Under the pieces are notes generated by a model. That model was not told where the DNA came from. It saw only the letters and a list, made by a program, of their open reading frames with translations, and searched no databases. Source: Sumerlaeia bacterium (GTDB taxonomy: Bacteria > Sumerlaeota > Sumerlaeia > MVZB01). From it: a stretch of DNA of 64,000 bases. The stretch covers positions 13,201 to 77,200 of the forward strand of contig JAWLCE010000005.1 in assembly GCA_041687335.1 (NCBI GenBank), in the 5' to 3' direction. A program made the translations under genes and the position numbers. Positions 1,233-62,206 of the stretch are shown here, piece after piece; position 1 is the first letter of the stretch, and each line of letters starts with the position of its first letter.

Positions 1233-2442
<1,210 letters not shown>

Positions 2443-2456
2443 CACGCCCCCAACGT

Positions 2457-4196
2457 TTAATGTAGCGACATCTCTGCCGGTACCCACCACTTGGAGTAAC
2501 CGGGGTAATGGCCGTGGATGCCGCGCGGAGAGAAATTGACTCCGCGGATCTTGTTGTTGAGGACGAACGTCGCCGCCTGGTTCCAGATGAACAGCGACGG
2601 CTGGTCCTCGTAGATCAGCTTCTGGATCTCACCGAAATACTCCGCCCGCTTCTGCTCGTCAAACTCGCGCACGACCAGCTCAAACAGCTCGTCCACGCGC
2701 GGGTTCGAGTAGCCACCGTAGTTGCGCCCCTCCTTGTGCATCTCGCTCTTCCAGATATTGTCGCTCGTGTCAGGATACACCCCCGTTCCCCAGCCGGCCA
2801 GATATGCTTGAAAGTCGCGCGCCTCCGTGCGGGAGAACAGCGCAGCCACCTCCATCGTCCGTAGCGACATCTCGATCCCCAGCCGGCGCAGGTCCTGCTG
2901 GAAAACCGCAGCCGCGTTCGCCCGCTCAGGCTGTCCCTGCGCGAACAGCAGCTCGAACGCAAAACGCACACGTTGCCCATCAATTACTTTGTAGCGCCAG
3001 CCGTCGGTCTCGTCGCGCAGCCAGCCGGCCTCATCGAGCAGCTGCGCAGCCCGTGCCGGGTCGTACTCGATCGGCTCGATCTCCTCATTGAACATCCAGG
3101 AGTCGGGGTGAAAGATCCCCAAGCACTGCGTGTTGAGCCCGTAGCCCACCGTGCGCAGCACGTGCGGCATGTTGAACGCATGCGCCAGCGCGTGGCGCAC
3201 CTTGAGATCCTGGAAGAACGGCACCGAGGGGTTCTTCTGATTCCAAGTTATATGGATGTAGGTCCACGAGGAGCTGAGAGCCTTGTTCCCGATTTGGGCA
3301 AATCTTGAGTCATTGGTCTCGAAGGCAAACTGCTGCGACGTAACCTCCAACTCGTCGAGCTGGCCCTGATTGAACAGTTGCAGCGACGTGTTGCGGTCGG
3401 GTTGGATCTTCAGCACGATCCGCTTCCAGTAAGGCTTTTCGCCAGGGTAGTCTTCCCAGCGCTCGTAGACCAGCCGGTCCTCTGGGATCCACTCCACCAG
3501 CTTGTAGGGGCCGTTGCCGATAACCTGCTGGCGTGCGTAGCGGGTATAGTACTCGCTCTGTCGCATGGTCGGGTCCTTGGCGCGCTCTTCGGGGTTGCCG
3601 AAAATATGCTTGGGCACCAATGGGGTGCCGGAGACTTCCCACTTGTTGATCGGCAGCGATTCCTTCATCACAATTCGTAGCGTGCGCGCGTCAATCGCCT
3701 CCATCGACTCGATTTGACGGGCGCGGTCACGGAAGGTCAACGCTGGTACCTGTTCATCGAGCACCGCCTGCCATGAAAAGACGAAGTCCTCGGCAGTCAG
3801 CGGGTGCCCGTCGTGCCACTTCAGACCCTCCTGTAGCACGAACGTCCACTCACGCTGGTCCTCGGACGCTTCATAAGACTCAACCATGTCGGGGTTGACC
3901 ATCCACTCAAAGTCCGCGTCGAAGCTTGTCAGCCCCTCAAAGAGCGGCCCCTGTCCATAGCTGTCATACGTCGTCGAGTAAAAAAGCGGGTTGAGCGTGT
4001 TGGGGCTGCCGGGGGAGTGGCGATAGAGGGTCTGGCCGGTGGCGACGGCGGCGGGGTCGTCGGGGAAGGGCTCAAGCATCTGGGGCGGGTTGACCAGCGG
4101 GTCCTCGGCGGGGTCGTAGGTGCGGTCGACCGGTTGGCAGGCAGCCAAGGCCAGGGCGGCCAGGCCGAGGGCGATCCAGGAGGTCAGTTTGTGCAC
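2457..4196 (-). CDS. ABC transporter substrate-binding protein, family 5 (peptide/nickel), lipoprotein
   Basis: 579 aa with an N-terminal lipoprotein signal (LAALALAAC) and SBP_bac_5-like length and composition. GTG start at 4196. Heads the three-gene importer operon; no ATPase genes within the window. Confidence 0.85.
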   Translation of the reverse strand: MHKLTSWIALGLAALALAACQPVDRTYDPAEDPLVNPPQMLEPFPDDPAAVATGQTLYRHSPGSPNTLNPLFYSTTYDSYGQGPLFEGLTSFDADFEWMVNPDMVESYEASEDQREWTFVLQEGLKWHDGHPLTAEDFVFSWQAVLDEQVPALTFRDRARQIESMEAIDARTLRIVMKESLPINKWEVSGTPLVPKHIFGNPEERAKDPTMRQSEYYTRYARQQVIGNGPYKLVEWIPEDRLVYERWEDYPGEKPYWKRIVLKIQPDRNTSLQLFNQGQLDELEVTSQQFAFETNDSRFAQIGNKALSSSWTYIHITWNQKNPSVPFFQDLKVRHALAHAFNMPHVLRTVGYGLNTQCLGIFHPDSWMFNEEIEPIEYDPARAAQLLDEAGWLRDETDGWRYKVIDGQRVRFAFELLFAQGQPERANAAAVFQQDLRRLGIEMSLRTMEVAALFSRTEARDFQAYLAGWGTGVYPDTSDNIWKSEMHKEGRNYGGYSNPRVDELFELVVREFDEQKRAEYFGEIQKLIYEDQPSLFIWNQAATFVLNNKIRGVNFSPRGIHGHYPGYSKWWVPAEMSLH

Positions 4197-4422
4197 GTGT
4201 GGCGTGTCCTTGATGTGATGCGAGCCGTGGGATGCGAGCGGGCCGGCCGTGGGGGCGGGGGGATGTGACCCCGCTCCGGCCGCCGCCGCATGCTGGATAG
4301 CATCTTAGCTTCAATCTATTGGAGATGCAAGTTCATGCGCATGAAAAGGAACGCGCGGGGGGCATCTTGAAATGCTGCCGGGAAGGGTAGGTCGGGTGGG
4401 ACAGCGGTGGGGATATCAGCAC

Positions 4423-4572
4423 ATGCCGCTCCTAACGGAGCTCTGACCCGGGGGGTGTTGGTTGCTACAAACATGCCGCTCCTCCGGAGCTATGTGCCCC
4501 GTCCGGGGCTGTTTCACGCGAGCCATCATTGGCCTTCGCTCGATGCGGCACGGCACGCTAAACACATACTCG
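4423..4572 (+). repeat. hairpin-rich intergenic repeat, family A, copy 1 (internal unit gccgctcc-NNN-ggagct)
   Basis: About 80% identical to 6790..6926 in direct orientation. A partial extra unit lies at 4606..4680. Contains multiple GC hairpins (gctccNNNggagc, gccccgtccggggc). Confidence 0.65.
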
Positions 4573-4889
4573 AAGGTGAAATGTGTTTAGCGGGAGGTGG
4601 TGTCACAGGCCGCTCCACCGGAGCTAACTGGCCTCCGGGGCTGTTTCGCGCCAGCCCGCGGCCCTCGCTCGATGCGGCTGCTTTCGATCGGAGTGTCGCC
4701 CCTGCCGGGGCTTGTGGGTTTCATTTGACCCCCACCCATGGCTCACGCCATGGGCTACCGAAGTATCGCCCCTGCCGGGGCTTATGTGGCCGGCAGGGAC
4801 GGCAAGGTATCGAGTGGTTCCTTGGCCTGGACAGGGACTTCCAAAGGATCAACGGTTCGGCAAAGGTCGCTAAACATATATGGCGCTAT

Positions 4890-4936
4890 GAACCGAAACT
4901 GGAGGCGATGTCGGGTCGAAGACCCGACCTACCACG
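4890..4936 (+). repeat. hairpin element, family C (gtcgggtcgaagacccgac core), copy 1
   Basis: gaaccgaaactggaggcgatgtcgggtcgaagacccgacctaccac. An inverted copy lies at 62070..62108 and a truncated copy at 6547..6579. Confidence 0.65.
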
Positions 4937-4958
4937 TTTAAGTCGTCCGAAAGCGGGG

Positions 4959-6422
4959 TCACCGCAGCCGCAGGAAGATATCGCCGGGGCTGGTGGTGCC
5001 GTTGGTGGGGTCGTAGGCGATGGCGGCGCGCTGGTCGGCGCGGTCGGGGCCGAGGCTGTAGATAACCGTGCCAGCGGGTTCGTCAAGCTCGCGCAGCGGG
5101 CCGTCGGCGAAGGGGTCCCGCGGCGGGGTGGGCGCGGCGCCCTCGACGGCGATGGTGCGATCGAGCGCGGCCAGACAGACCCGCAGCCGCGCCAGATTGG
5201 TGGCGGTGCGCACCATACATTCCATATGATTCGGAATACGATCAGAGTATTGTATAAGGGCATGATATTCAAACTCATGGATGATATTTTGATCCAACTG
5301 CTCGAATACCGTCTTATGATGCTCATCGAAGGCGTGCAGGATTTCGGGTGCCTGGACCTTCAGAAGAGCCGTGCGCGCCGCACTTTGATAGACCGCTCCG
5401 GCCATTGGTCCGGGTTCAAAAAGAGCCAGGTCAAGAGCTTCGAAAAGATCCATGCTTCGGTTACGCCGCATTGGCGGACCAATGCCTGATTTGAACAATT
5501 CCCAAGTCGGCGTTCTCAGGTAGCTGATCTGGAAGGAGCGTGCCTGTAGGTATTCGACCGTGGAGACGGCGCGGACATCCTGCAGCGTGATCTCGTAGGG
5601 CTCCAGTCCGGCGCGAAGGCGCCGCGCCAGCTCGGGCGGCGGCGGGGCCTCGGCCAGCCAGCTATTCAGTTCGGCATAACCCTGAGTCTGCATCGAAAGG
5701 GCCACCAGTACGCTGATCAGGTACGGCTCGCGGATCGAATCGGCCAAGGGCTGGATCGCGAGCAGGGCCTCGGCGGCGCCGGCCGGATCGCCCGCCTCGC
5801 GGCGGCGGCGGCTTTCGGCAGCCAGCACCTTACTGACATTATTCCAAAACAGGTAATTGGGTAACGGCCATGCCGACATTTCGGAGGCGCTGGAGCGACG
5901 CTGCTGCCAGAGGGCCATCAACTCGCCGGCCTGGATCTGTTTCACCCCACCCAGCTCCGCCAGCCGCTCCAGGTCGGAAACCAGTTCCTGGTTGGACACC
6001 AGCCAGTCGGCCATGCCGGGCAGGAGCGGATCGCCCCCCTTCCAGCCCTCAAGGACATCGTTTTCATTGCGTGGATAAAAGATGGAATCGTGCAGCTCAA
6101 GCCGCTCATGCCATTTGTTAAAAATGGCCAACGCCTCGGGCGCCGAGCGTATGGCCAACATCTCGTTCAGGCCCGGCTCTGGGGGGAGGTGGGCATAATC
6201 AGTCCGGGGCTGCGCCGGGGTCGAGGGGCTGTGCGGCGCCGAGGGGTGTGGGGATTCCATCAGCGCCAGCAGCTCGGCCGGCGGCTGGCGCTGGGAGTCC
6301 GGGATGGCATTGAGCCGGAAGATGACGCTCAGCACGAGCATGGCCGCCAGCGGCGGGAGGAAGACGATCCCCGCCAGGATCCACGGCCAGAGCCGTCGTT
6401 TTGGTTTGCTGGTTTCGGTCAT
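4959..6422 (-). CDS. hypothetical membrane-anchored protein
   Basis: In-frame ATG at 6422 (MTETSKPKRRLWPWILAGIVFLPPLAAM...) gives a single N-terminal TM helix and a 460-aa, mostly helical, soluble domain. Strong GC3 bias. Upstream ORF extension rejected because it runs into a repeat region. Confidence 0.6.
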   Translation of the reverse strand: MTETSKPKRRLWPWILAGIVFLPPLAAMLVLSVIFRLNAIPDSQRQPPAELLALMESPHPSAPHSPSTPAQPRTDYAHLPPEPGLNEMLAIRSAPEALAIFNKWHERLELHDSIFYPRNENDVLEGWKGGDPLLPGMADWLVSNQELVSDLERLAELGGVKQIQAGELMALWQQRRSSASEMSAWPLPNYLFWNNVSKVLAAESRRRREAGDPAGAAEALLAIQPLADSIREPYLISVLVALSMQTQGYAELNSWLAEAPPPPELARRLRAGLEPYEITLQDVRAVSTVEYLQARSFQISYLRTPTWELFKSGIGPPMRRNRSMDLFEALDLALFEPGPMAGAVYQSAARTALLKVQAPEILHAFDEHHKTVFEQLDQNIIHEFEYHALIQYSDRIPNHMECMVRTATNLARLRVCLAALDRTIAVEGAAPTPPRDPFADGPLRELDEPAGTVIYSLGPDRADQRAAIAYDPTNGTTSPGDIFLRLR

Positions 6423-6546
6423 GCTGAACGCCTTGCAAAAAATATTACCCACTTTAAACAAGACGCGCGGCGGGGGCGTTGGTTGCAAGGTAATTTGTGG
6501 GCATGAAAATGAAACAGGGGGACATGGGCGCCGTATAAGAGATTTT

Positions 6547-6579
6547 CGAACCGACACCGGAGGCGATGTTGGGTCTTCG
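6547..6579 (+). repeat. hairpin element, family C, truncated copy
   Basis: cgaaccgacaccggaggcgatgttgggtcttcg matches the 5' half of the 4890..4936 element. Confidence 0.5.
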
Positions 6580-6635
6580 TATGTGATTAGGGGGGCAAGT
6601 GGCGCTGGCAACCTTGCTGAACACGGTCCCCCCTA

Positions 6636-6750
6636 TGGTTGCCACTGTGTCGCCCTTTCAGGGCTCGGGGAATTGGGCCGGCAGACCCAGGGTTACGCTT
6701 CGCTAACCCTGGGCTTTTTGAACTGTGCCCACCCTTTCAGGGTGGAATGC
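6636..6750 (+). repeat. structured intergenic repeat, family B, copy 1
   Basis: tggttgccactgtgtcgccctttcagggctc...cagggttacgcttcgctaaccctg...caccctttcagggtggaatgc. About 88% identical to 19091..19206. Confidence 0.7.
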
Positions 6751-6789
6751 CGGTGCATGCCGAGTGGGCGGTGCTTCTGTCGTCACAGC

Positions 6790-6926
6790 CTCTCCTACGG
6801 AGCTCTGACCAAGGGGTGTTGCTTGCTACAAACAGGCCGCTCCTCCAAAGCTTTTTGGCCCGCTGGGGCTAAGTCGCGCCTGCCAACGGCCCAAGCTCGA
6901 TGCGTCACGCTGAACAGATACCGTCG
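6790..6926 (+). repeat. hairpin-rich intergenic repeat, family A, copy 2
   Basis: ctcctacggagctctgacc..ggggtgttgcttgctacaaacaggccgctcctccaaagct...ctcgatgcgtcacgctgaacagatac, co-linear with copy 1. Confidence 0.65.
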
Positions 6927-7082
6927 GTCACCACCGGCTAAGCTTTTGCCCGTTCGGGGGCAATGTTTTTGGTCCATTTTGGCGATCTTGGCCGCTTGGC
7001 GCTTTGGCGTGAACCATGGCAGCCATTCGCCGAAGACTCGACCGGCCACTTCGGGGGCGGCTGGGCTGGGGCATGAAAGCTT

Positions 7083-7111
7083 TTGAATAATCCCCCGCAA
7101 TCTGTTAAAAA
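7083..7111 (+). promoter_or_regulatory. putative sigma70-like promoter upstream of aspS (TTGAAT-17 nt-TAAAAA)
   Basis: ttgaat at 7083-7088, 17-nt spacer, taaaaa at 7106-7111, about 80 nt upstream of the aspS ATG. Sequence-pattern call only. Confidence 0.3.
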
Positions 7112-7192
7112 ATGGACTTCTTCCATCCGCCGGGGCTGCGGCCTGCGGACCGCCCCCACCCGGCGGAGGGCCGGATCGAAAGGGATTCCACC

Positions 7193-9043
7193 ATGACATC
7201 GGGCATCTCGACGCTCGCCACCACCGCGCGCAGCTGCCGCTGCGGCGAGGTCACCACCGGACAGGTCGGCCAGGAGGTTGTGCTCAAGGGTTGGGCGCAC
7301 CATCGGCGCGATCACGGCGGGGTGCTGTTTGTTGACCTGCAGGACCGATCGGGGCTGGTGCAGGTGGTGTTCGATCCGGACCAGTTCAGCGGGGAGCTTT
7401 TCGATCAGGCGAGCCGGATCAAGCTGGAGTCGGTGCTGGCGGTGCGGGGGCTGGTGCGGCCGCGGCCGGAGGGGACGATCAACCCGGCGCTGGCGACGGG
7501 GCAGATCGAGGTGATGGTGACGGAGTATGAGATTTTGTCGCCGGCGGCGACGCTGCCGTTCCCGATCGACGAGCAGTTCAACGCCAGCGAGGACCTGCGG
7601 CTGAAGTATCGCTACCTGGACCTGCGGCGGCCCGAGATGCAGCACAACCTGGCGCAGCGGGCGCTGGTGGCGCGCACGATGCGGCGGGTGCTCGACGAGA
7701 ACGGGTTTTTGGAAATCGAGACGCCGTGCCTGACGCGGTCGACGCCAGAGGGGGCGCGCGACTTCCTGGTGCCGAGCCGGCTGATGCAGGGGACATTTTA
7801 TGCGCTGCCGCAATCGCCCCAGCTCTTCAAGCAGCTCCTGATGGTGGCGGGGATGGACCGCTATTACCAGATCGTGCGCTGCTTCCGCGACGAGGACCTG
7901 CGCGCCAACCGCCAGCCGGAGTTCACCCAGCTCGACATCGAGATGAGCTTTCCGACGATGGACGAGCTGTTTGGCGTGATGGAGGCGATGATCGCGGAGA
8001 TCTGGCGCCAGGCGCTGGGGGTGGAGCTGAAGACGCCGTTTGACCGGCTGACGTTCGCCGATGCGATGGCCCGATACGGCAGCGACAAGCCCGACCGCCG
8101 CTTCGGGATGGAGATCGTGGACGTGACGGGCGCGGTGGCGGCCGGGGAGTGCGAGTTCAAGGTCTTCAACGACCTGCTGGCCGAGGGGGCGGCGGTCATC
8201 CGGGCGATTCGCGTGCCGGGGGGCGGGGAGCGCTACAGCAACACCCAGCTCAAGCCGGGGGGCGAGCTGCCGGCCTATGCGGCGCGCCACGGGGCGAAGG
8301 GTCTGGCGTGGTTCCGGGTCGTGGCGGGCGAGGGCGGGGCGGTGCTGGAGTCCTCGATCTCGAAGTTCTTCCTGCCGGGGTGCCAGCGGCGGATCATCGA
8401 GGCGACGGCGGGCGAGCCGGGCGACCTGATCCTGATCGTGGCGGACAAGGCGGCGGTGGCGGCCAACGCGCTCGGGCAGTTGCGGCTGAAGCTGGGGGCC
8501 GAACTGGGGCTGATCCCGGAGGGGGTCTACAATTTCTGCTGGGTGACGGACTTTCCGCTGCTGGAGTGGAGCGCCGAGGACAAGCGCTGGTTCAGCATGC
8601 ACCACCCCTTCACGATGCCGGCGCCGGAGGACTGGGAGAAGCTGGAGAGCGACCCGGGCGCGGTGCGGGCGCTGGCCTACGACCTGGCGCTCAACGGCGA
8701 GGAGATCGGCGGCGGCTCGATCCGTATCCACCGGCGCGACCTGCAGGAGCGGGTCTTCAGCGTGCTGGGAATCGGCGAGGAGGAGGCGCGCAACAAGTTC
8801 GGCTTCCTGATGGAGGCGTTCCAGTATGGCGCCCCGCCCCACGGCGGCATCGCCTTCGGGCTGGACCGGATGATGATGAGCATCCTGGGAACGCAATCGA
8901 TCCGCGACGTGATCCCGTTCCCCAAGACGCAGACGGGCTCGGACCTGATGGTGGCGGCCCCCAACGAGGTCGACGAGGCGCAGCTCAAGGAGCTGGGGAT
9001 CCGGTCGACGGTGGTTCGGCGCGAGGAGCCGACGCGGGGCTGA
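7193..9043 (+). CDS. aspS: aspartate--tRNA ligase (AspRS)
   Basis: N-terminal anticodon-binding OB fold (GQEVVLKGWAHHRRDHGGVLFVDLQDRSG) and class II aaRS motifs (FRDEDLRANRQPEFTQLD, GGGSIRIH, GLDR). ATG at 7193 within the longer ORF beginning at 7112. Confidence 0.95.
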   Translation: MTSGISTLATTARSCRCGEVTTGQVGQEVVLKGWAHHRRDHGGVLFVDLQDRSGLVQVVFDPDQFSGELFDQASRIKLESVLAVRGLVRPRPEGTINPALATGQIEVMVTEYEILSPAATLPFPIDEQFNASEDLRLKYRYLDLRRPEMQHNLAQRALVARTMRRVLDENGFLEIETPCLTRSTPEGARDFLVPSRLMQGTFYALPQSPQLFKQLLMVAGMDRYYQIVRCFRDEDLRANRQPEFTQLDIEMSFPTMDELFGVMEAMIAEIWRQALGVELKTPFDRLTFADAMARYGSDKPDRRFGMEIVDVTGAVAAGECEFKVFNDLLAEGAAVIRAIRVPGGGERYSNTQLKPGGELPAYAARHGAKGLAWFRVVAGEGGAVLESSISKFFLPGCQRRIIEATAGEPGDLILIVADKAAVAANALGQLRLKLGAELGLIPEGVYNFCWVTDFPLLEWSAEDKRWFSMHHPFTMPAPEDWEKLESDPGAVRALAYDLALNGEEIGGGSIRIHRRDLQERVFSVLGIGEEEARNKFGFLMEAFQYGAPPHGGIAFGLDRMMMSILGTQSIRDVIPFPKTQTGSDLMVAAPNEVDEAQLKELGIRSTVVRREEPTRG

Positions 9044-14891: not shown

Positions 14892-17800
14892 ATGGAAAAC
14901 AGTCCGCACGTCATAGGGATCGATCTCGGGACAACCAACTCGGTGGTCGCGGTGGTCGATTCGGGCGAACCCAACGTGATCAACAACCAGGAGGGGCGCA
15001 GCAAGACCCCCTCGGTGGTGGCCTTTGACGAACAAGGCGGGGTCACGGTCGGAGAGATCGCGCTGCGACAGGGGGCGACCCAGCCGCGGCGGACGATCTG
15101 TTCGGTCAAGCGCTTCATCGGCCGGATGCACGACGAGATTTTGGATGAGGGGGACCTGGTCTCGTTTGAGCTGACCGCCGACGAGGCCGGACGCTCGGCG
15201 ATCCGGGTGGACGAGAGGGTTTACCTGCCCGAGCAGATTTCGGCGCAGGTGCTGGCCAAGCTCAAGCAGGCGGCGGAGGATTACCTGGGCCAGCGCGTGG
15301 GGCGGGTGGTGCTGACCGTGCCGGCTTATTTCGACGACAACCAGCGGCAGGCGACGATGGAGGCGGCCAAGCTGGCCGGGCTGGAAGTGCTGCGCCTGCT
15401 CAACGAGCCGACGGCGGCGGCGATGGCCTATGGGTTGGGGCGGGGCGGACGCGAGACGGTGGCGGTCTATGACTTCGGCGGCGGCACGTTCGACTTCAGC
15501 GTGCTGGACATCGAGGACAAGACCTTTGAGGTCTTGTGTTCCAACGGCAACAGCCGGCTGGGCGGGGATGATCTCGACACGGCATTGACCGACTGGCTGG
15601 CGGACCGTTTCCAACAGGTCCACGGGATCGACCTGCGCGAGGATCCGATGACGTTGCGGCGGCTGCGGGATGCGGCCGAGCGGGCCAAGTGCGAGTTGTC
15701 GAGCGCGTTTGAGACGCTGGTCAGCCTGCCGTTCATCGCCTACGTGGACGGGGTGCCGATTCACCTTGAGGAGCGGATCGAGCGGGAGGTGTTCGAGGAG
15801 CTGGCCGAGCCGTATGTGCGTGAGACGATCGAATGCTGCGTGCGGGGGCTGCGCCAGGCGCGGGTGCGCAAGGAGGACATCACGCGCGTGATCCTGGTGG
15901 GCGGCTCGACGCGGATTCCGCTGGTGCAGGACAGCGTGGAGGACTTTTTCGGGCTGGCGCCGTTCAAGGGCATCAACCCCGACGAGATCGTGGCGCTGGG
16001 GGCGGCGATCCAGGGCGCGGTGATGAACGGTGAGCTGGAGGAGGTCGTGCTGCTGGACGTGACGCCCCACACGCTGGGGATCGAGCTGCGCGGCAACCGG
16101 CGCTCGATGCTGGTGGAGAAGAATGCGACGATCCCGATCAAGGTCCACAAGACGTTCAGCACAACCGAAGACCACCAGACCTTTGTCAACATCCACGTTT
16201 TGCAGGGCGACAGCGACAAGGCCAATGAGTGCCGGAGTCTGGGGCGGTTCACGCTTTCGGGGATCGAGGATGCGCCGGCGGGGGTGCCGCGCATCCGGGT
16301 AACCTTTTTCATCAATGCCGACGGCATCGTGGAGATTTCGGCGGCGGACTTGGCGAGCGGGGCCGAGCGCTCGCTGGTGATCAGCCATGCCTACCTGAAT
16401 TCGGACCAGCGCCAGAAGACTCAGGGTGAGGGGCGGCGCAAGCGGCGGCGGCGGCGGGCGATCATGGAATCGTCCGACGGCAGCGGTGAGCTGGCGCCGG
16501 TGCGCGCGCGGCGGGAGTCGACCGAGGCGCGCCGGCGTGATCCGGCCGCCACGGGATCGGCCGGCGGCGGGGCGACCGGCACGCATGTGAATTTCGCAAT
16601 GATCCACGGGGACACGGAACCGCAGCCGGTGCCGCGCCAGCCGGCGCGCAGCCGGGAGGCTGACGAACGGCAGGTGGTTGAAGCGGCGGTGGCCGGCCCG
16701 AGCGCGCCCGCAACCGAGGCCGCTGATTCAACCATCGGGCACGGGCCGCGGCGGGCGATGATACCGGCCGCGGCGGCGTTGACGCAGACGGTGACGGCGC
16801 CGCCGGCGGCCCGGGGGACGGTGCCCGCGGGTTCCCCGCCGGCAATGCCCACGCCACCGGCCACGCCCGTGACCATGCCGGTGGCTGCGTCCGCGGCGAC
16901 GCCGGTGGCCGCCGATGTGGCCCCGCGTGAGGAATTGCTTGCCGAGCTGCCGGCGGAGTTGCCGGCTGAGCTGGCGCCGATGGTGGAGATCCTGCTGGAG
17001 GGGCGGCGCGACGAGAACGCCTGCCGGCTGTATCGGGACGCACGGGCGCAGTTCGCCGAGTTCTGCCAGCAGCGCTTCGACCAGATATCACTCCAGCTTC
17101 TACTGGCGCGCCTGCACCTGTTTGCCGGCGAGGCCGAGAGCTCGCTGGAGGTGCTCGAGCAGTTGCGGATGCGGCCGGAGGCCCCGACCGAGCGGATGCT
17201 GGCGGCGTATGATGAATTCTGTGCCCAAGCCCCCGATAGCCTGGCCGGCCGCGGCGAGCGAGCCGAACTGGCCGAGCAGGCGGGGCAGATCGAGCGGGCG
17301 ATCGCGGACCTTGAGCTGCTGGTGGAGCCCGAGGACGCGGACCCGGCCCTGCTGGCGCGGCTGGCGGGACTCTACCGGCGCGCGCTGGGGGATCACTCCG
17401 ACGCGGCGATCCAGTTCAAGCTGGTGGGGCTGCATCTGCGCCTGCGCGACATCGACGCGGCGATCACGCAGCTCCAGCAACTGGTGACGCTGCCCGACCA
17501 CCGGCATCGGGCCAACAAGCTGCTGGGCCTGTGCTTCTGGCAGAAAGGGATGCGCCACCTGGCCTGGCAGAAGCTGCGCACGCTGCCCATCAATGACGAG
17601 ATGAAGGACATCCTCTACCGGTTGGCCGACGACATGGACCTGCACGACGAGCTGCTGCACGCCAAGTATGCGCTGGAGCGGATCTATGAGGTCGACATCC
17701 AGTATCGGGACGTGGGGGAGCGGCTGAAGAAGCTTTCGTACCGGCTCGAGCTGCAGCGCGATGGGCGCTACGGCAGCACCCCGGCGCCGCGAACGGGGCT

Positions 17801-18599
17801 GGGCACGACGCTGGAGTCGGGGGGCGAGCTGGGTGGGCGCTTCGAGATCATCGAGGAGATCAACCGCGGCTCGATGGGGATCGTCTACAAGGCGCGCGAC
17901 AAGATATTGGATGAGATCGTGGCGATCAAGGTGCTCAATGACTTCCTCTGCGCCGACCAGGAGGCGATCGAGCGGTTCAAGCAGGAGGCGCGCTCATCGC
18001 GGCGGCTGACCCACCAGAACATCGTGCGGATCCACGACCTGTTCGACCTGGACGGCAAAAAGTTCATCTCGATGGAGTTCATCGAGGGGGACAACTTGAA
18101 GACGCTGCTGGCGCGCAACGTGACCTTCAGCGACGACATCGCGCTGACCTACCTGTTCCAGATTTGCGAGGGGCTGGCCTATGCCCACCGGCTGCATGTG
18201 GTCCACCGCGACATCAAGCCGGCCAACATCATGATCACGGCGCGCAATCAGGTGAAGATCACCGACTTTGGCATTGCCAAGCTGCTGACCGAGCACCAGA
18301 CCAAGACCGGGACGCTGATCATGGGCACGCCGCTCTACATGGCGCCTGAGCAGATCGAGGGCGGGCGGATCGACCATCGCTGCGACATCTATGCCCTGGG
18401 GATCATGCTTTGGGAGATGGTGATGGGGCACCCGCCGTTCAATGAGGGCAACATCGAGTATCAGCACGTGCACAGCCCGGTGCCCGAAATCACCCGCACG
18501 GTCAGCGAAAAGCTGCGCAAGATCATTCTGCACTGCGTGAAGAAGAGGCCGGAGGAACGATTCCAGACGGCGGAAGAGATTTTGACACGGATTGTCTGA
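14892..18599 (+). CDS. Hsp70-like ATPase / TPR-like region / Hanks-type Ser/Thr protein kinase fusion protein
   Basis: Residues 1-505 carry the Hsp70 NBD signatures (IGIDLGTTNS, DFGGGTFD, LVGGSTRIP) and an SBD-beta segment, with no helical lid. A Pro/Ala-rich linker and a helical repeat region follow. The C-terminal 256 aa (about 17829-18599) carry kinase motifs VAIK, HRDIKPAN, DFG and APE. Confidence 0.85.
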   Translation: MENSPHVIGIDLGTTNSVVAVVDSGEPNVINNQEGRSKTPSVVAFDEQGGVTVGEIALRQGATQPRRTICSVKRFIGRMHDEILDEGDLVSFELTADEAGRSAIRVDERVYLPEQISAQVLAKLKQAAEDYLGQRVGRVVLTVPAYFDDNQRQATMEAAKLAGLEVLRLLNEPTAAAMAYGLGRGGRETVAVYDFGGGTFDFSVLDIEDKTFEVLCSNGNSRLGGDDLDTALTDWLADRFQQVHGIDLREDPMTLRRLRDAAERAKCELSSAFETLVSLPFIAYVDGVPIHLEERIEREVFEELAEPYVRETIECCVRGLRQARVRKEDITRVILVGGSTRIPLVQDSVEDFFGLAPFKGINPDEIVALGAAIQGAVMNGELEEVVLLDVTPHTLGIELRGNRRSMLVEKNATIPIKVHKTFSTTEDHQTFVNIHVLQGDSDKANECRSLGRFTLSGIEDAPAGVPRIRVTFFINADGIVEISAADLASGAERSLVISHAYLNSDQRQKTQGEGRRKRRRRRAIMESSDGSGELAPVRARRESTEARRRDPAATGSAGGGATGTHVNFAMIHGDTEPQPVPRQPARSREADERQVVEAAVAGPSAPATEAADSTIGHGPRRAMIPAAAALTQTVTAPPAARGTVPAGSPPAMPTPPATPVTMPVAASAATPVAADVAPREELLAELPAELPAELAPMVEILLEGRRDENACRLYRDARAQFAEFCQQRFDQISLQLLLARLHLFAGEAESSLEVLEQLRMRPEAPTERMLAAYDEFCAQAPDSLAGRGERAELAEQAGQIERAIADLELLVEPEDADPALLARLAGLYRRALGDHSDAAIQFKLVGLHLRLRDIDAAITQLQQLVTLPDHRHRANKLLGLCFWQKGMRHLAWQKLRTLPINDEMKDILYRLADDMDLHDELLHAKYALERIYEVDIQYRDVGERLKKLSYRLELQRDGRYGSTPAPRTGLGTTLESGGELGGRFEIIEEINRGSMGIVYKARDKILDEIVAIKVLNDFLCADQEAIERFKQEARSSRRLTHQNIVRIHDLFDLDGKKFISMEFIEGDNLKTLLARNVTFSDDIALTYLFQICEGLAYAHRLHVVHRDIKPANIMITARNQVKITDFGIAKLLTEHQTKTGTLIMGTPLYMAPEQIEGGRIDHRCDIYALGIMLWEMVMGHPPFNEGNIEYQHVHSPVPEITRTVSEKLRKIILHCVKKRPEERFQTAEEILTRIV

Positions 18600-18601
18600 C
18601 C

Positions 18602-18967
18602 ATGAGCCATAGCGATACCAAATACCAACTGCTGGCCGATTTCAACCCGCACCCGGACATCTGCGTGCGGCTGCTCGAGCGGCATGGGCCGTCGTTGACG
18701 GCGACCCTGGCGGGCCAGTTGCGGCTGGAAGGGTCGGCCCGCCTGCTCGAGTTCCTCGTGGAGCAGTTCGATCGCCACCATCCGCAGTGTCTGATTTTGG
18801 ACTGCGCCGAGTTGAGCTTCGTGGACAGCCAGGGATTATCGATGCTGTTGCAACTGCACAAGGCGTGCCGCAACGTGGGGATCGAGCTGAGCCTGCGCGA
18901 CCCCAACCCCTTCCTGCGCGACCTCTTGCGACTGACGCGGATTGACACCTACTTCCACATTTACTGA
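18602..18967 (+). CDS. STAS domain protein (anti-sigma factor antagonist-like, SpoIIAA/RsbV family)
   Basis: 121 aa with the conserved phospho-acceptor serine context ELSFVDSQGLSML. The ATG lies 3 nt after the kinase stop, so the two genes are likely co-transcribed. Confidence 0.8.
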   Translation: MSHSDTKYQLLADFNPHPDICVRLLERHGPSLTATLAGQLRLEGSARLLEFLVEQFDRHHPQCLILDCAELSFVDSQGLSMLLQLHKACRNVGIELSLRDPNPFLRDLLRLTRIDTYFHIY

Positions 18968-19090
18968 TCATCAATTCTTGCGCCGGCAGGGAACGCCAGC
19001 CCCAGTTCCTAGTTCCGCCTTCAGGCGGTAGGGGCATGCCAACTTCTTCAGTATGTGTTTAAGCGTAAAAAGGGCGACATGGTCTACCCC

Positions 19091-19206
19091 TGTGGCTGCC
19101 ACTGTGTCGCCCCCTCAGGGCTCTGATAATTTGGCCGGAATACCCTGGGTTACGCTTCGCTCACCCAGGGCTTTTGAACTGTGCCCACCCTTTCAGGGTG
19201 GAATGC
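19091..19206 (+). repeat. structured intergenic repeat, family B (three-hairpin element), copy 2
   Basis: About 88% identical to 6636..6750. Contains hairpins gcccYYtcagggc, cagggtta-N8-taaccctg and caccctttcagggtg. Confidence 0.7.
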
Positions 19207-19361
19207 GGTGACATACCCGCCACGCTAAAGACATACCACGCTTGGCCACCATATGTTGCCGCTGCCGCGGCTTTGGTTTCGAGTGGTGTTGCCCGAATAT
19301 TGATGCAAAGTGGCGGGGGGTCTGGCTATGCTGGGGTTGGATTTTCTGCAAGGAGAAATGG

Positions 19362-35643: not shown

Positions 35644-35921
35644 GCGCGCCCAAGGCCCCTCCCGGCCATGTTATAGAGTGCATCGCCGCGCCCGGCGACG
35701 CCACATCGAAATCAGTTGGAAGAATATTTTGGGTTGCGTCGCGGTTGATCGGATTCAAAACCCGCCCCAGCACGTCACTCAAAAGGGCGGGATTGGATCC
35801 TCTCTGAACACCTATCTTTCGTTTTCTTGTTATCCTGCGAAGTTTCTGCCGCCCCTTCATGGCTCTGATGAACTGGGCGCTGGACCGGGGGTTCCCTGCG
35901 GTCACCCCCGGCTACTCGCGG

Positions 35922-35946
35922 TCGCCCCTTCGGGGCTGGGTTTTTG
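35922..35946 (+). terminator. orphan plus-strand intrinsic-terminator-like hairpin in the glgC downstream region
   Basis: gcccc ttc ggggc followed by tgggttttt. No annotated plus-strand gene lies upstream of it. Confidence 0.35.
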
Positions 35947-62069: not shown

Positions 62070-62108
62070 ATGGTAGGTCGGGTCTCCGACCCGACATGGC
62101 TTCCAGTG
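62070..62108 (-). repeat. hairpin element, family C, inverted copy
   Basis: Reverse complement reads ctggaagccatgtcgggtcggagacccgacctaccatc, which aligns with 4899..4936. Confidence 0.6.
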
Positions 62109-62206
62109 TCGGCTTGAAGAGCCGATCTGCCCTCCCCTGGCTTACAAAAAACATCTTGGCAGGCGCGGCCCCGGCGGAGGCACAATGGGCCTGGAGCCTT
62201 GCGAAG

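Follow-up and report, generated by a model that had tools for sequence, protein, structure and literature searches.

A 64,000-nt stretch of a Sumerlaeia bacterium genome (phylum Sumerlaeota; hereafter the window) contains a minus-strand gene for a 487-aa protein that is set between two unusually long gene-free spacers, of 762 and 761 bp if the start of aspS is placed at 7184. These spacers are probably mosaics that resemble bacterial interspersed mosaic elements (BIMEs) and are composed of non-autonomous, hairpin-forming members of the repetitive extragenic palindrome (REP) superfamily. Their core module would be a unit of three hairpins (a-b-c), of which two simpler kinds of repeat—family A, made of head, linker, and small hairpin, and family C, a plain GTAG-headed REP or pair of inverted REPs (REPIN)—may be shorter derivatives. 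In relatives, inverted copies of the three-hairpin unit flank a gene for a small transposase of the Y1 HUH type. As a kind, such an arrangement is known and would count as ordinary selfish or structural DNA of bacteria: these are GTAG-type REPs, REPINs, and REPtrons in a BIME-like order.

Evidence from the source genome covers the 64-kb window, against the whole of which both spacers were searched with sensitive blastn. All three repeat families (A, B, and C) that an original prediction had read from this DNA were recovered at essentially the positions proposed there, with similarities far above chance (E = 1e-19, 4e-36, and 4e-10, respectively; Table 1). The two family B copies are 86% identical over 132 nt (6630–6761 versus 19087–19217). 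Their hairpin a has the form ..TCG-stem-loop-stem-CT; their hairpin b, CCCWGGGTTA-CGCTTCGC-TAACCCWGGG, is longer than the small hairpin c and differs between the copies by a compensatory A-T/T-A swap. In this family (6686–6722, 19143–19178), AAAAG stands in place of the GTAG head of hairpin b and gives CTTTT(T) when read along the plus strand; hairpin b together with this T-run scored as an intrinsic terminator, and copy 2 lies just downstream of the Hsp70-kinase and STAS genes described below. Family A, whose copies 1 and 2 are direct repeats 2364 nt apart, consists of tandem units (CTAC, 7 nt, YCG-small hairpin-CT) that correspond to the 3′ half of the Rfam motif Acido-Lenti-1 without hairpin b. 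An extension of the family A similarity leftwards into the tail of family B found no support. Family C consists of a simple GTAG REP (GTAGGTCGGGTC..GACCCGAC), of which the window holds two exact copies where none is expected. Both full copies lie 15–27 nt after a stop codon and have their GTAG head on the side nearest the gene. Copies 1 and 2 form direct repeats around the enclosed gene, 1.66 kb apart, and copy 3, which starts 15 nt past the stop codon of an RNase D-like gene, is a REPIN-like dimer because an inverted partner REP stands 12 nt away (dimer span 62073–62131).

The a-b-c unit spans ~105 nt and has small stem-loops at its two ends (a and c) with a GTAG-headed REP (b) between them; read from the other strand, hairpin b and the CTAC that follows it on the plus strand form this GTAG-headed REP. 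A covariance model of the unit, R1, retrieved exactly four copies from the window (45–107 bits), all on the plus strand. Two of them go beyond the original prediction, namely a fourth copy of the family B architecture (4686–4789) and a diverged copy (35839–35945), as does a 14-nt motif discussed below. In the diverged copy, stem b is fully covarying (CCGGGGGT/ACCCCCGG) and the linker, CTACTCGCGG, is the same as in transposase-flanking units. Hairpin b and family C fold as stems of 7–10 bp, and every copy is intergenic. GTAG heads are present at 4932–4929, 62073–62076, 4758–4755, and 35915–35912, and 12 of 14 aligned units have CTAC after hairpin b.

Base pairing within the unit is maintained by covariation. 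Across 14 units aligned with R1—an alignment fitted to the model and hence biased towards the structure—94% of cells are paired and 11 of 22 pairs change on both sides; covariation amounted to 0.289 versus 0.119 after shuffling, none of 500 shuffles reached the observed value, and slid controls dropped to 30–59% paired. For 11 cross-phylum units, the paired share of cells is 79%, both partners vary in 11 of 22 pairs, and covariation was 0.27 versus 0.10 (again 0 of 500 shuffles), with all four Watson-Crick pair types used in the outer stem of hairpin b. Mispairs of the G-T and A-C types are balanced (7:4 and 9:8), and neither strand is therefore favored. A generic regular expression, CG-stem-loop-stem-CT, proved too permissive genome-wide (34 observed versus ~17 in shuffles) and was used descriptively only.

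It is in relatives that the unit is found next to a transposase. In locus L125, from a Sumerlaeota relative (73% identity in AspRS), R1 found two units of 55 bits each, at 14948–15058 (minus strand) and 15525–15635 (plus strand), which lie 3–15 nt from a gene (15073–15522) for a 149-aa Y1 transposase (PF01797, Y1_Tnp). The encoded protein has the HUH motif (DHVHLLL) and a catalytic Tyr region, and matches both the IS200-family model NF033573 (56 bits) and TnpA structures of the ISDra2/IS608 type. Homologs with the same arrangement occur in L126 and L127 (74–75% identical) and in L128 (46%), a Pyrinomonadaceae acidobacterium; in each, R1 units flank the Y1 gene, the upstream one on the minus and the downstream one on the plus strand. 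Inverted a-b-c units accordingly flank the gene for a 149–150-aa Y1 HUH transposase in four out of four loci examined. Many homologs of the L125 protein are labeled RayT or REP-associated tyrosine transposase (RAYT) by JGI, which is a COG name and not proof. In a REPtron or TIRtron, a Y1 HUH gene is flanked by inverted copies of a repeat that is also dispersed in the genome (PMC3733652). Since the flanks here are inverted, near-identical, and abut the gene, we assign the arrangement to this type and not to IS200/IS605. Insertion sequences (ISs) of the IS200/IS605 group, together with their derivatives among palindrome-associated transposable elements (PATEs) and miniature inverted-repeat transposable elements (MITEs), do share a Y1 HUH transposase (PF01797, NF033573), the recognition of single-stranded-DNA hairpins, and the lack of target-site duplications; however, their ends are asymmetric and on the same strand, whereas the flanks here are inverted composites directly at the gene, as with RAYTs and terminal inverted repeat (TIR)-associated tyrosine transposases (TIRYTs). 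We discarded the idea that the unit at 35839–35945, beside an NTP-transferase gene, is a relic REPtron marking a lost transposase, as gene order differs from that in L126 and L127.

In a relaxed-threshold Rfam scan, 4735–4782 matched Acido-Lenti-1 (RF01687) end to end (full-length 1–46 alignment, E = 7e-5), and for this reason we equate the b-c half of the unit with Acido-Lenti-1 and regard a as an extra 5′ hairpin. Compared with the seed alignment, the segment fits the two-hairpin architecture of RF01687, including the conserved CUA(C) linker and the CG...CU frame. Relatives supplied matches above the gathering score, at L123:20242–20288 (44.9 bits) and L121:2956–3001 (46.2 bits); window positions 4734–4789 are 89% identical to L123:20241–20295, and the transposase-flanking units of L128 are likewise near-threshold matches. 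Acido-Lenti-1 has been described as a motif with no known function that forms clustered multi-copy arrays (Weinberg 2010, PMC2864571 and its supplement). The likeness extends over stem, CUCACG-type loop, CUA, ~8 nt, and CG-stem-loop-stem-CU, and to the clustering of multiple copies in the seed genomes, which include Lentisphaera araneosa and Koribacter versatilis. What differs is the context: here, the motif occupies the last two-thirds (3′ side) of a Y1-gene-flanking unit with three hairpins and shows no strand preference relative to transcription.

Nor are the repeats confined to this locus, the outcome that would have told against the original prediction. When species-representative genomes were scanned with the hairpin-b core (GGGTTACGCTTCGCTNACCC; 19 specified bases), at least 120 loci in many phyla were found, the matches listed including Bradyrhizobium, Alcanivorax, Marinobacter, Geobacter, Nitrospira, and cyanobacteria as well as Bacteroidota, Verrucomicrobiota, Victivallales, Armatimonadota, and Chloracidobacterium. 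CTAC stood after a 3-bp stem extension in 86 of the 139 matches listed, and many were classic inverted REP doublets. The complete a-b-c architecture, sometimes as inverted doublets, was seen in a subset of the matches listed, from Verrucomicrobia, Bacteroides, Muribaculaceae, Armatimonadota, Chloracidobacterium, and Victivallales. REPIN arrangements also occur in L161, L021, and L035, and the family A core (TTGCTACAAACANGCCGCTCC) occurs on 32 metagenome contigs, several with tandem arrays of a 49- or 87-nt period (L142, L149). This dispersal—over unrelated loci of the window, in relatives, and across phyla—bears out the original prediction that the elements are REP- or MITE-like, and specifies them as GTAG-type REPs with small stem-loops. 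Two further observations concern REP-type hairpins in other genomes. L007:1593–1722, from a gammaproteobacterial metagenome-assembled genome (MAG), holds a head-to-tail array with a 55-nt period, and the bacterial REP core GGGTTACGCTTCGCTAACCC is present on two contigs that binning assigned to archaea (L067, L116; Candidatus Woesearchaeota MAGs), which could be due to chance, mis-binning, or transfer.

Strong base-pair covariation and the typing of RF01687 as a small RNA (sRNA) in Rfam also speak for another account, namely that the units are structured-RNA genes or cis-elements (an Acido-Lenti-1 sRNA; a terminator, insulator, or 3′ stabilizer) whose multiplicity reflects functional need and not mobility. 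So do the terminator-like hairpin b and T-run of family B, with copy 2 lying 130 nt after a gene end, and the placement of family C copies, which come after stop codons and are always oriented the same way with respect to the gene upstream. However, the orientation of a-b-c units relative to neighboring genes is inconsistent (family B copy 1 is in a divergent promoter region, copy 2 is co-directional, and the units at 4686 and 35839 are antisense), arguing against a primary strand-specific RNA role. The balanced mispairs, the tight association of inverted units with all four Y1 transposase genes, and the tandem arrays and inverted doublets in other genomes point in the same direction, and we regard this account as unlikely. 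Of the proposal made at the outset that the repeats might be structured regulatory or insulator RNAs, what remains is a secondary role: it is plausible that the host would use individual copies as terminators or 3′-end stabilizers. Acido-Lenti-1 itself looks like a transposase-associated REP and not an sRNA.

Seen as REP-superfamily elements, the repeats have several known counterparts. Nunvar (2010) and Bertels and Rainey (2011) are reportedly sources on RAYT- and TIRYT-associated repeats. Published descriptions cover a GTAG-tagged REP superfamily, REPtrons and TIRtrons, composite TIRs of REP and stem-loop, and REP dimers within longer palindromes (Di Nocera 2013, PMC3733652), and the same paper names Acid345_1552 as a TIRYT. 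Common to these systems and ours are short extragenic stem-loops with an unpaired GTAG-like head and covarying stems, positioned after genes and in clusters and dimers (family C copy 3 is a head-out dimer), as well as inverted copies of the same repeat on either side of a gene for a small Y1 HUH transposase (here, in relatives); composites of REPs with unrelated stem-loops have been described in Pseudomonas (PMC3733652). By contrast, the unit here is a three-hairpin composite, the copies in the window stand singly and share a strand, family B carries an AAAG head, an extra 14-nt inverted motif closes the blocks, and Sumerlaeota lie outside the published surveys. BIMEs of E. coli are likewise intergenic mosaics of REP hairpins and other short conserved motifs between co-directional or convergent genes, with possible roles as terminators or mRNA stabilizers, but their REPs alternate in orientation whereas the modules here are nearly all direct, and the module sequences are unrelated.

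The repeats are further organized by a 14-nt motif, T (CGCTAAACACATAC), for which seven matches (≤3 mismatches) were found in the spacers and at the 19-kb site versus 1.3 expected. Its copies pair convergently and bound three composite blocks, E2, E3, and E4 (303, 343, and 186 bp); a fourth, E1, has a right end only. About 20 nt at the right end are common to blocks with different interiors. Block E4 sits 130 nt after the STAS gene, and as single-stranded DNA its T arms pair and close three hairpins (z = −3.6). Upon inspection of the sequence, no consistent target-site duplication was found at the flanks of E2, E3, or E4 or at any block end. Family C copy 2 (6547–6592 region) breaks off within its hairpin loop precisely where the terminal motif of E3 begins, which suggests insertion or replacement at a REP; the missing half was not found beyond the other end of E3.

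Classical MITEs, too, are non-coding elements of 100–400 bp bounded by terminal inverted repeats, and with their three convergent 14-mer pairs E2, E3, and E4 might be deletion derivatives of a DDE-type IS with a 14-bp TIR (GTATGTGTTTAGCG) that hold REP hairpins by chance. The paired arms of E4 and the shared right ends fit this explanation as well. Yet besides the missing target-site duplications, the interiors consist wholly of REP-superfamily modules that occur without the 14-mer in other genomes, the window has no IS with matching ends, and there is a published precedent for REP dimers embedded in longer palindromes (PMC3733652). We therefore consider a MITE origin of the blocks highly unlikely and take the 14-nt inverted motif, which is lineage-specific, as part of the REP mosaics.

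Table 1 Positions of repeat copies, T-bounded blocks, and the enclosed gene in the window
Feature	Position	Strand	Evidence	Remarks
Family A copy 1	4404..4552	+	blastn vs 6768-6909: 76% over 149 nt, E=1e-19	Tandem small hairpins CTAC, 7 nt, YCG-stem-loop-stem-CT (e.g., 4465-4491) and GCTCGATGCG tail
Motif T, right end of block E1	4556..4569	+	14-mer search	
Block E1	ends at 4569			Right end only
Block E2	4579-4881			Holds A1b and a-b-c unit
Motif T inverted, left end of E2	4579..4592	-	14-mer search	
Extra family A unit (A1b)	4605..4678	+	81% identity to 4471-4549, E=1.5e-11	Within block E2
a-b-c unit	4686..4789	+	R1 44.6 bits, E=2e-9	Repeated unit 4689-4716 / 4759-4786, 89%
Motif T, right end of E2	4868..4881	+	14-mer search	
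Family C copy 1	4882..4934	-	vs 62123-62071 (inverted): 83% over 53 nt, E=4e-10	GTAG REP GTAGGTCGGGTCTTCGACCCGAC at 4932-4910, 27 nt past the gene's stop codon; then degenerate partner arm
Lineage-specific 487-aa protein	4959..6422	-	AlphaFold	N-terminal membrane helix, alpha-solenoid, small C-terminal beta domain
Family C copy 2, truncated	6547..6579	-	6548-6575 vs 4890-4917: 89% over 28 nt, E=5.6e-4	
Block E3	6579-6921			Holds family B copy 1 and family A copy 2
Motif T inverted, left end of E3	6579..6592	-	14-mer search	
Family B copy 1 (a-b-c unit)	6640..6752	+	R1 106.5 bits; blastn vs 19087-19217, E=4e-36	Hairpin b CCCAGGGTTA-CGCTTCGC-TAACCCTGGG, then CTTTTT; terminator-like in terminator scan
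Family A copy 2	6768..6909	+	blastn and alignment with copy 1	
Motif T, right end of E3	6908..6921	+	14-mer search	
Block E4	19051..19236	+		T-inverted 19051-19064, family B copy 2 only, T 19223-19236
Family B copy 2 (a-b-c unit)	19097-19208	+	blastn, R1	Inside block E4
Diverged a-b-c unit	35839..35945	+	R1 63.9 bits; alignment	
Family C copy 3, REPIN-like dimer	62071..62131	+		GTAG-GTCGGGTC..GACCCGAC, then inverted partner GTCGGCT..AGCCGAT-CTGC

The gene between the spacers is real, with 12 homologs at 25–56% identity and an AlphaFold2 model of mean pLDDT (predicted local distance difference test) 78. Pfam, NCBIfam, PDB sequence, and PDB fold searches returned no match to the protein beyond generic alpha-solenoid resemblances. 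In the homolog alignment, its C-terminal beta domain bears an invariant motif, YS.GPD..DQ....DPTNG..S.GD, which may resemble the pseudopilin GspG, a likeness confirmed by no tool. The neighbors are an oligopeptide ABC transporter (2457–4196 and upstream) and aspS (7184–9043). By its AspRS homologs, with 78% identity to those of named MAGs, the window belongs to Candidatus Sumerlaeota/Sumerlaeia (BRC1). Among the confidently coding genes of this neighborhood, the gene has the lowest G+C content at third codon positions (GC3; 0.73 versus 0.81–0.94); its middle (5200–5550) falls to ~52% G+C in a genome of ~65% G+C. The protein family is narrow and paralogue-rich, with one paralogue elsewhere on the source contig. 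In L161 (bacterium LLG95, GCA_021372575.1), three tandem paralogues of 418, 448, and 451 aa (1894–6356) are separated by REP-bearing spacers, the first of which (3158–3402) holds an inverted a-b-c-like doublet with CAAAG/CTTTG heads. After the third paralogue comes a REPIN whose second arm is the family C REP of the window—a REP pattern that, apart from the window, was found nowhere else in ~1 Mb of compared loci—and the last ~35 nt of this paralogue together with the REPIN are tandemly duplicated (L161:6350–6540). The gene is probably a resident, lineage-specific one that encodes a membrane-anchored protein of a paralogue-rich family. A 360-aa plus-strand open reading frame (ORF; 4407–5489), thought at first to lie entirely in the repeats, is indeed spurious; about half of it falls within them, and the rest (4959–5489) runs antisense to the real gene.

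Bracketing by direct repeats had led the original prediction to propose a mobilized or recombination-prone cassette. On such an account, the repeats, which bracket the gene at two nested levels (2.36 kb for family A, 1.66 kb for family C), would mark REP-mediated insertion, duplication, or deletion of the gene's segment. The low GC3 and the 52% G+C core agree with this, as do the narrow, paralogue-rich family with its REP-spaced tandem paralogues in L161 and the tandem duplication of gene end plus family C REPIN there. Family C copy 2, moreover, belongs to a type of element usually found after genes, yet it stands upstream of this one and is cut off at the edge of E3, and synteny at aspS is fluid. 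Direct support is nonetheless lacking: target-site duplications are not consistent at any block end, no ORF scanned across the 64 kb encodes an integrase, transposase, or reverse transcriptase, and the bracketing copies, with identities of 76% in family A and, over 28 nt, 89% in family C, are old. In addition, the two spacers are different mosaics and not duplicates, and no empty site was present among the relatives compared, whose aspS neighborhoods (73–79% AspRS identity) are not syntenic with the window. The nearest relative has a 240-bp repeat-free spacer at aspS, which is uninformative given its different neighbor gene. On balance, a cassette is an improbable explanation, and the bracketing may instead have arisen incidentally as REPs accumulated in two long spacers. 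Two specific forms of cassette were rejected. For an integron cassette, there is no integrase or recombinase among the window ORFs scanned, and both flanks are multi-module mosaics (no specific model of attC core sites was applied); for a group II intron, there is no reverse transcriptase, nor any intron RNA family at Rfam gathering thresholds.

Two observations were made in passing at these loci. Directly after the aspS stop codon of the closest relative lies a long near-perfect palindrome (L121:6289–6365) that gives spurious microRNA-family hits on both strands. Within the window, the stretch 14892–18967 holds a 1235-aa ORF that fuses an Hsp70/DnaK-type ATPase (PF00012, residues 7–509) to a C-terminal Ser/Thr kinase (PF00069, residues 984–1231), an unusual chaperone-kinase fusion that is directly followed by a STAS-domain protein (18602–18967).

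Several points weigh against interpreting the spacers as mosaics of mobile REP-type elements. No Y1 transposase was detected in the window by tblastn, no mobility event in the form of a presence/absence polymorphism was seen, and the 64 kb of source genome available hold four a-b-c units and three family C copies. Each of the four a-b-c units stands alone, and all share one strand, which sets them apart from classic inverted REPIN doublets, and the family B copies have AAAG, not GTAG, at the head. The Acido-Lenti-1 match at 4735–4782 scores 32.4 bits, below the gathering score of 37, and the 14-nt motif is absent from ~1 Mb of other loci and falls outside known RAYT biology.

On the interpretation we favor, a small Y1 HUH transposase, of RAYT/TIRYT type, would use the modules as its single-stranded-DNA substrates. 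This cognate transposase would be encoded once elsewhere in the genome, itself flanked by inverted unit copies, and would have mobilized the copies in the window. It may seed units into intergenic DNA that tolerates them, for the most part just beyond the 3′ ends of genes, where they would then decay, duplicate locally, and pile up into clusters. Taken further, three ideas can be combined into a proposal that is possible without being probable: that a-b-c is the cognate substrate of a multi-phylum clade of 149–150-aa Y1 transposases, RF01687 being mis-typed and in truth REP-class mobile or domesticated DNA; that this Sumerlaeota genome packages the modules between 14-nt inverted motifs into composites of 190–340 bp, a REPIN-like architecture new to the literature; and that REP spacers drive the duplication and turnover of the paralogous membrane-protein genes they enclose.

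Three leads appear to be new. One is Acido-Lenti-1 as a REP-plus-stem-loop module flanking a clade of Y1 transposases, a link made by none of the four papers listed out of five that a full-text search on the motif name found. The second is the three-hairpin packaging with its lineage-specific 14-nt closing motif, and the third is Sumerlaeota as a host phylum. The finding reveals no new kind of system and says little on the function of the enclosed gene. It does account for a pair of gene-free spacers of unusual length and for the spurious ORFs in them, which are repeat artifacts and a warning for annotation, and it adds a poorly studied phylum, Sumerlaeota, to the range of REP/RAYT-type systems. 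Three-hairpin units also occur in Lentisphaerota, Verrucomicrobiota, Bacteroidota, and Armatimonadota; the transposase link was examined in Sumerlaeota and Acidobacteriota. For these two phyla, the results offer a testable reinterpretation, in which an orphan Rfam “sRNA” would be the recognition repeat of a Y1 transposase clade.

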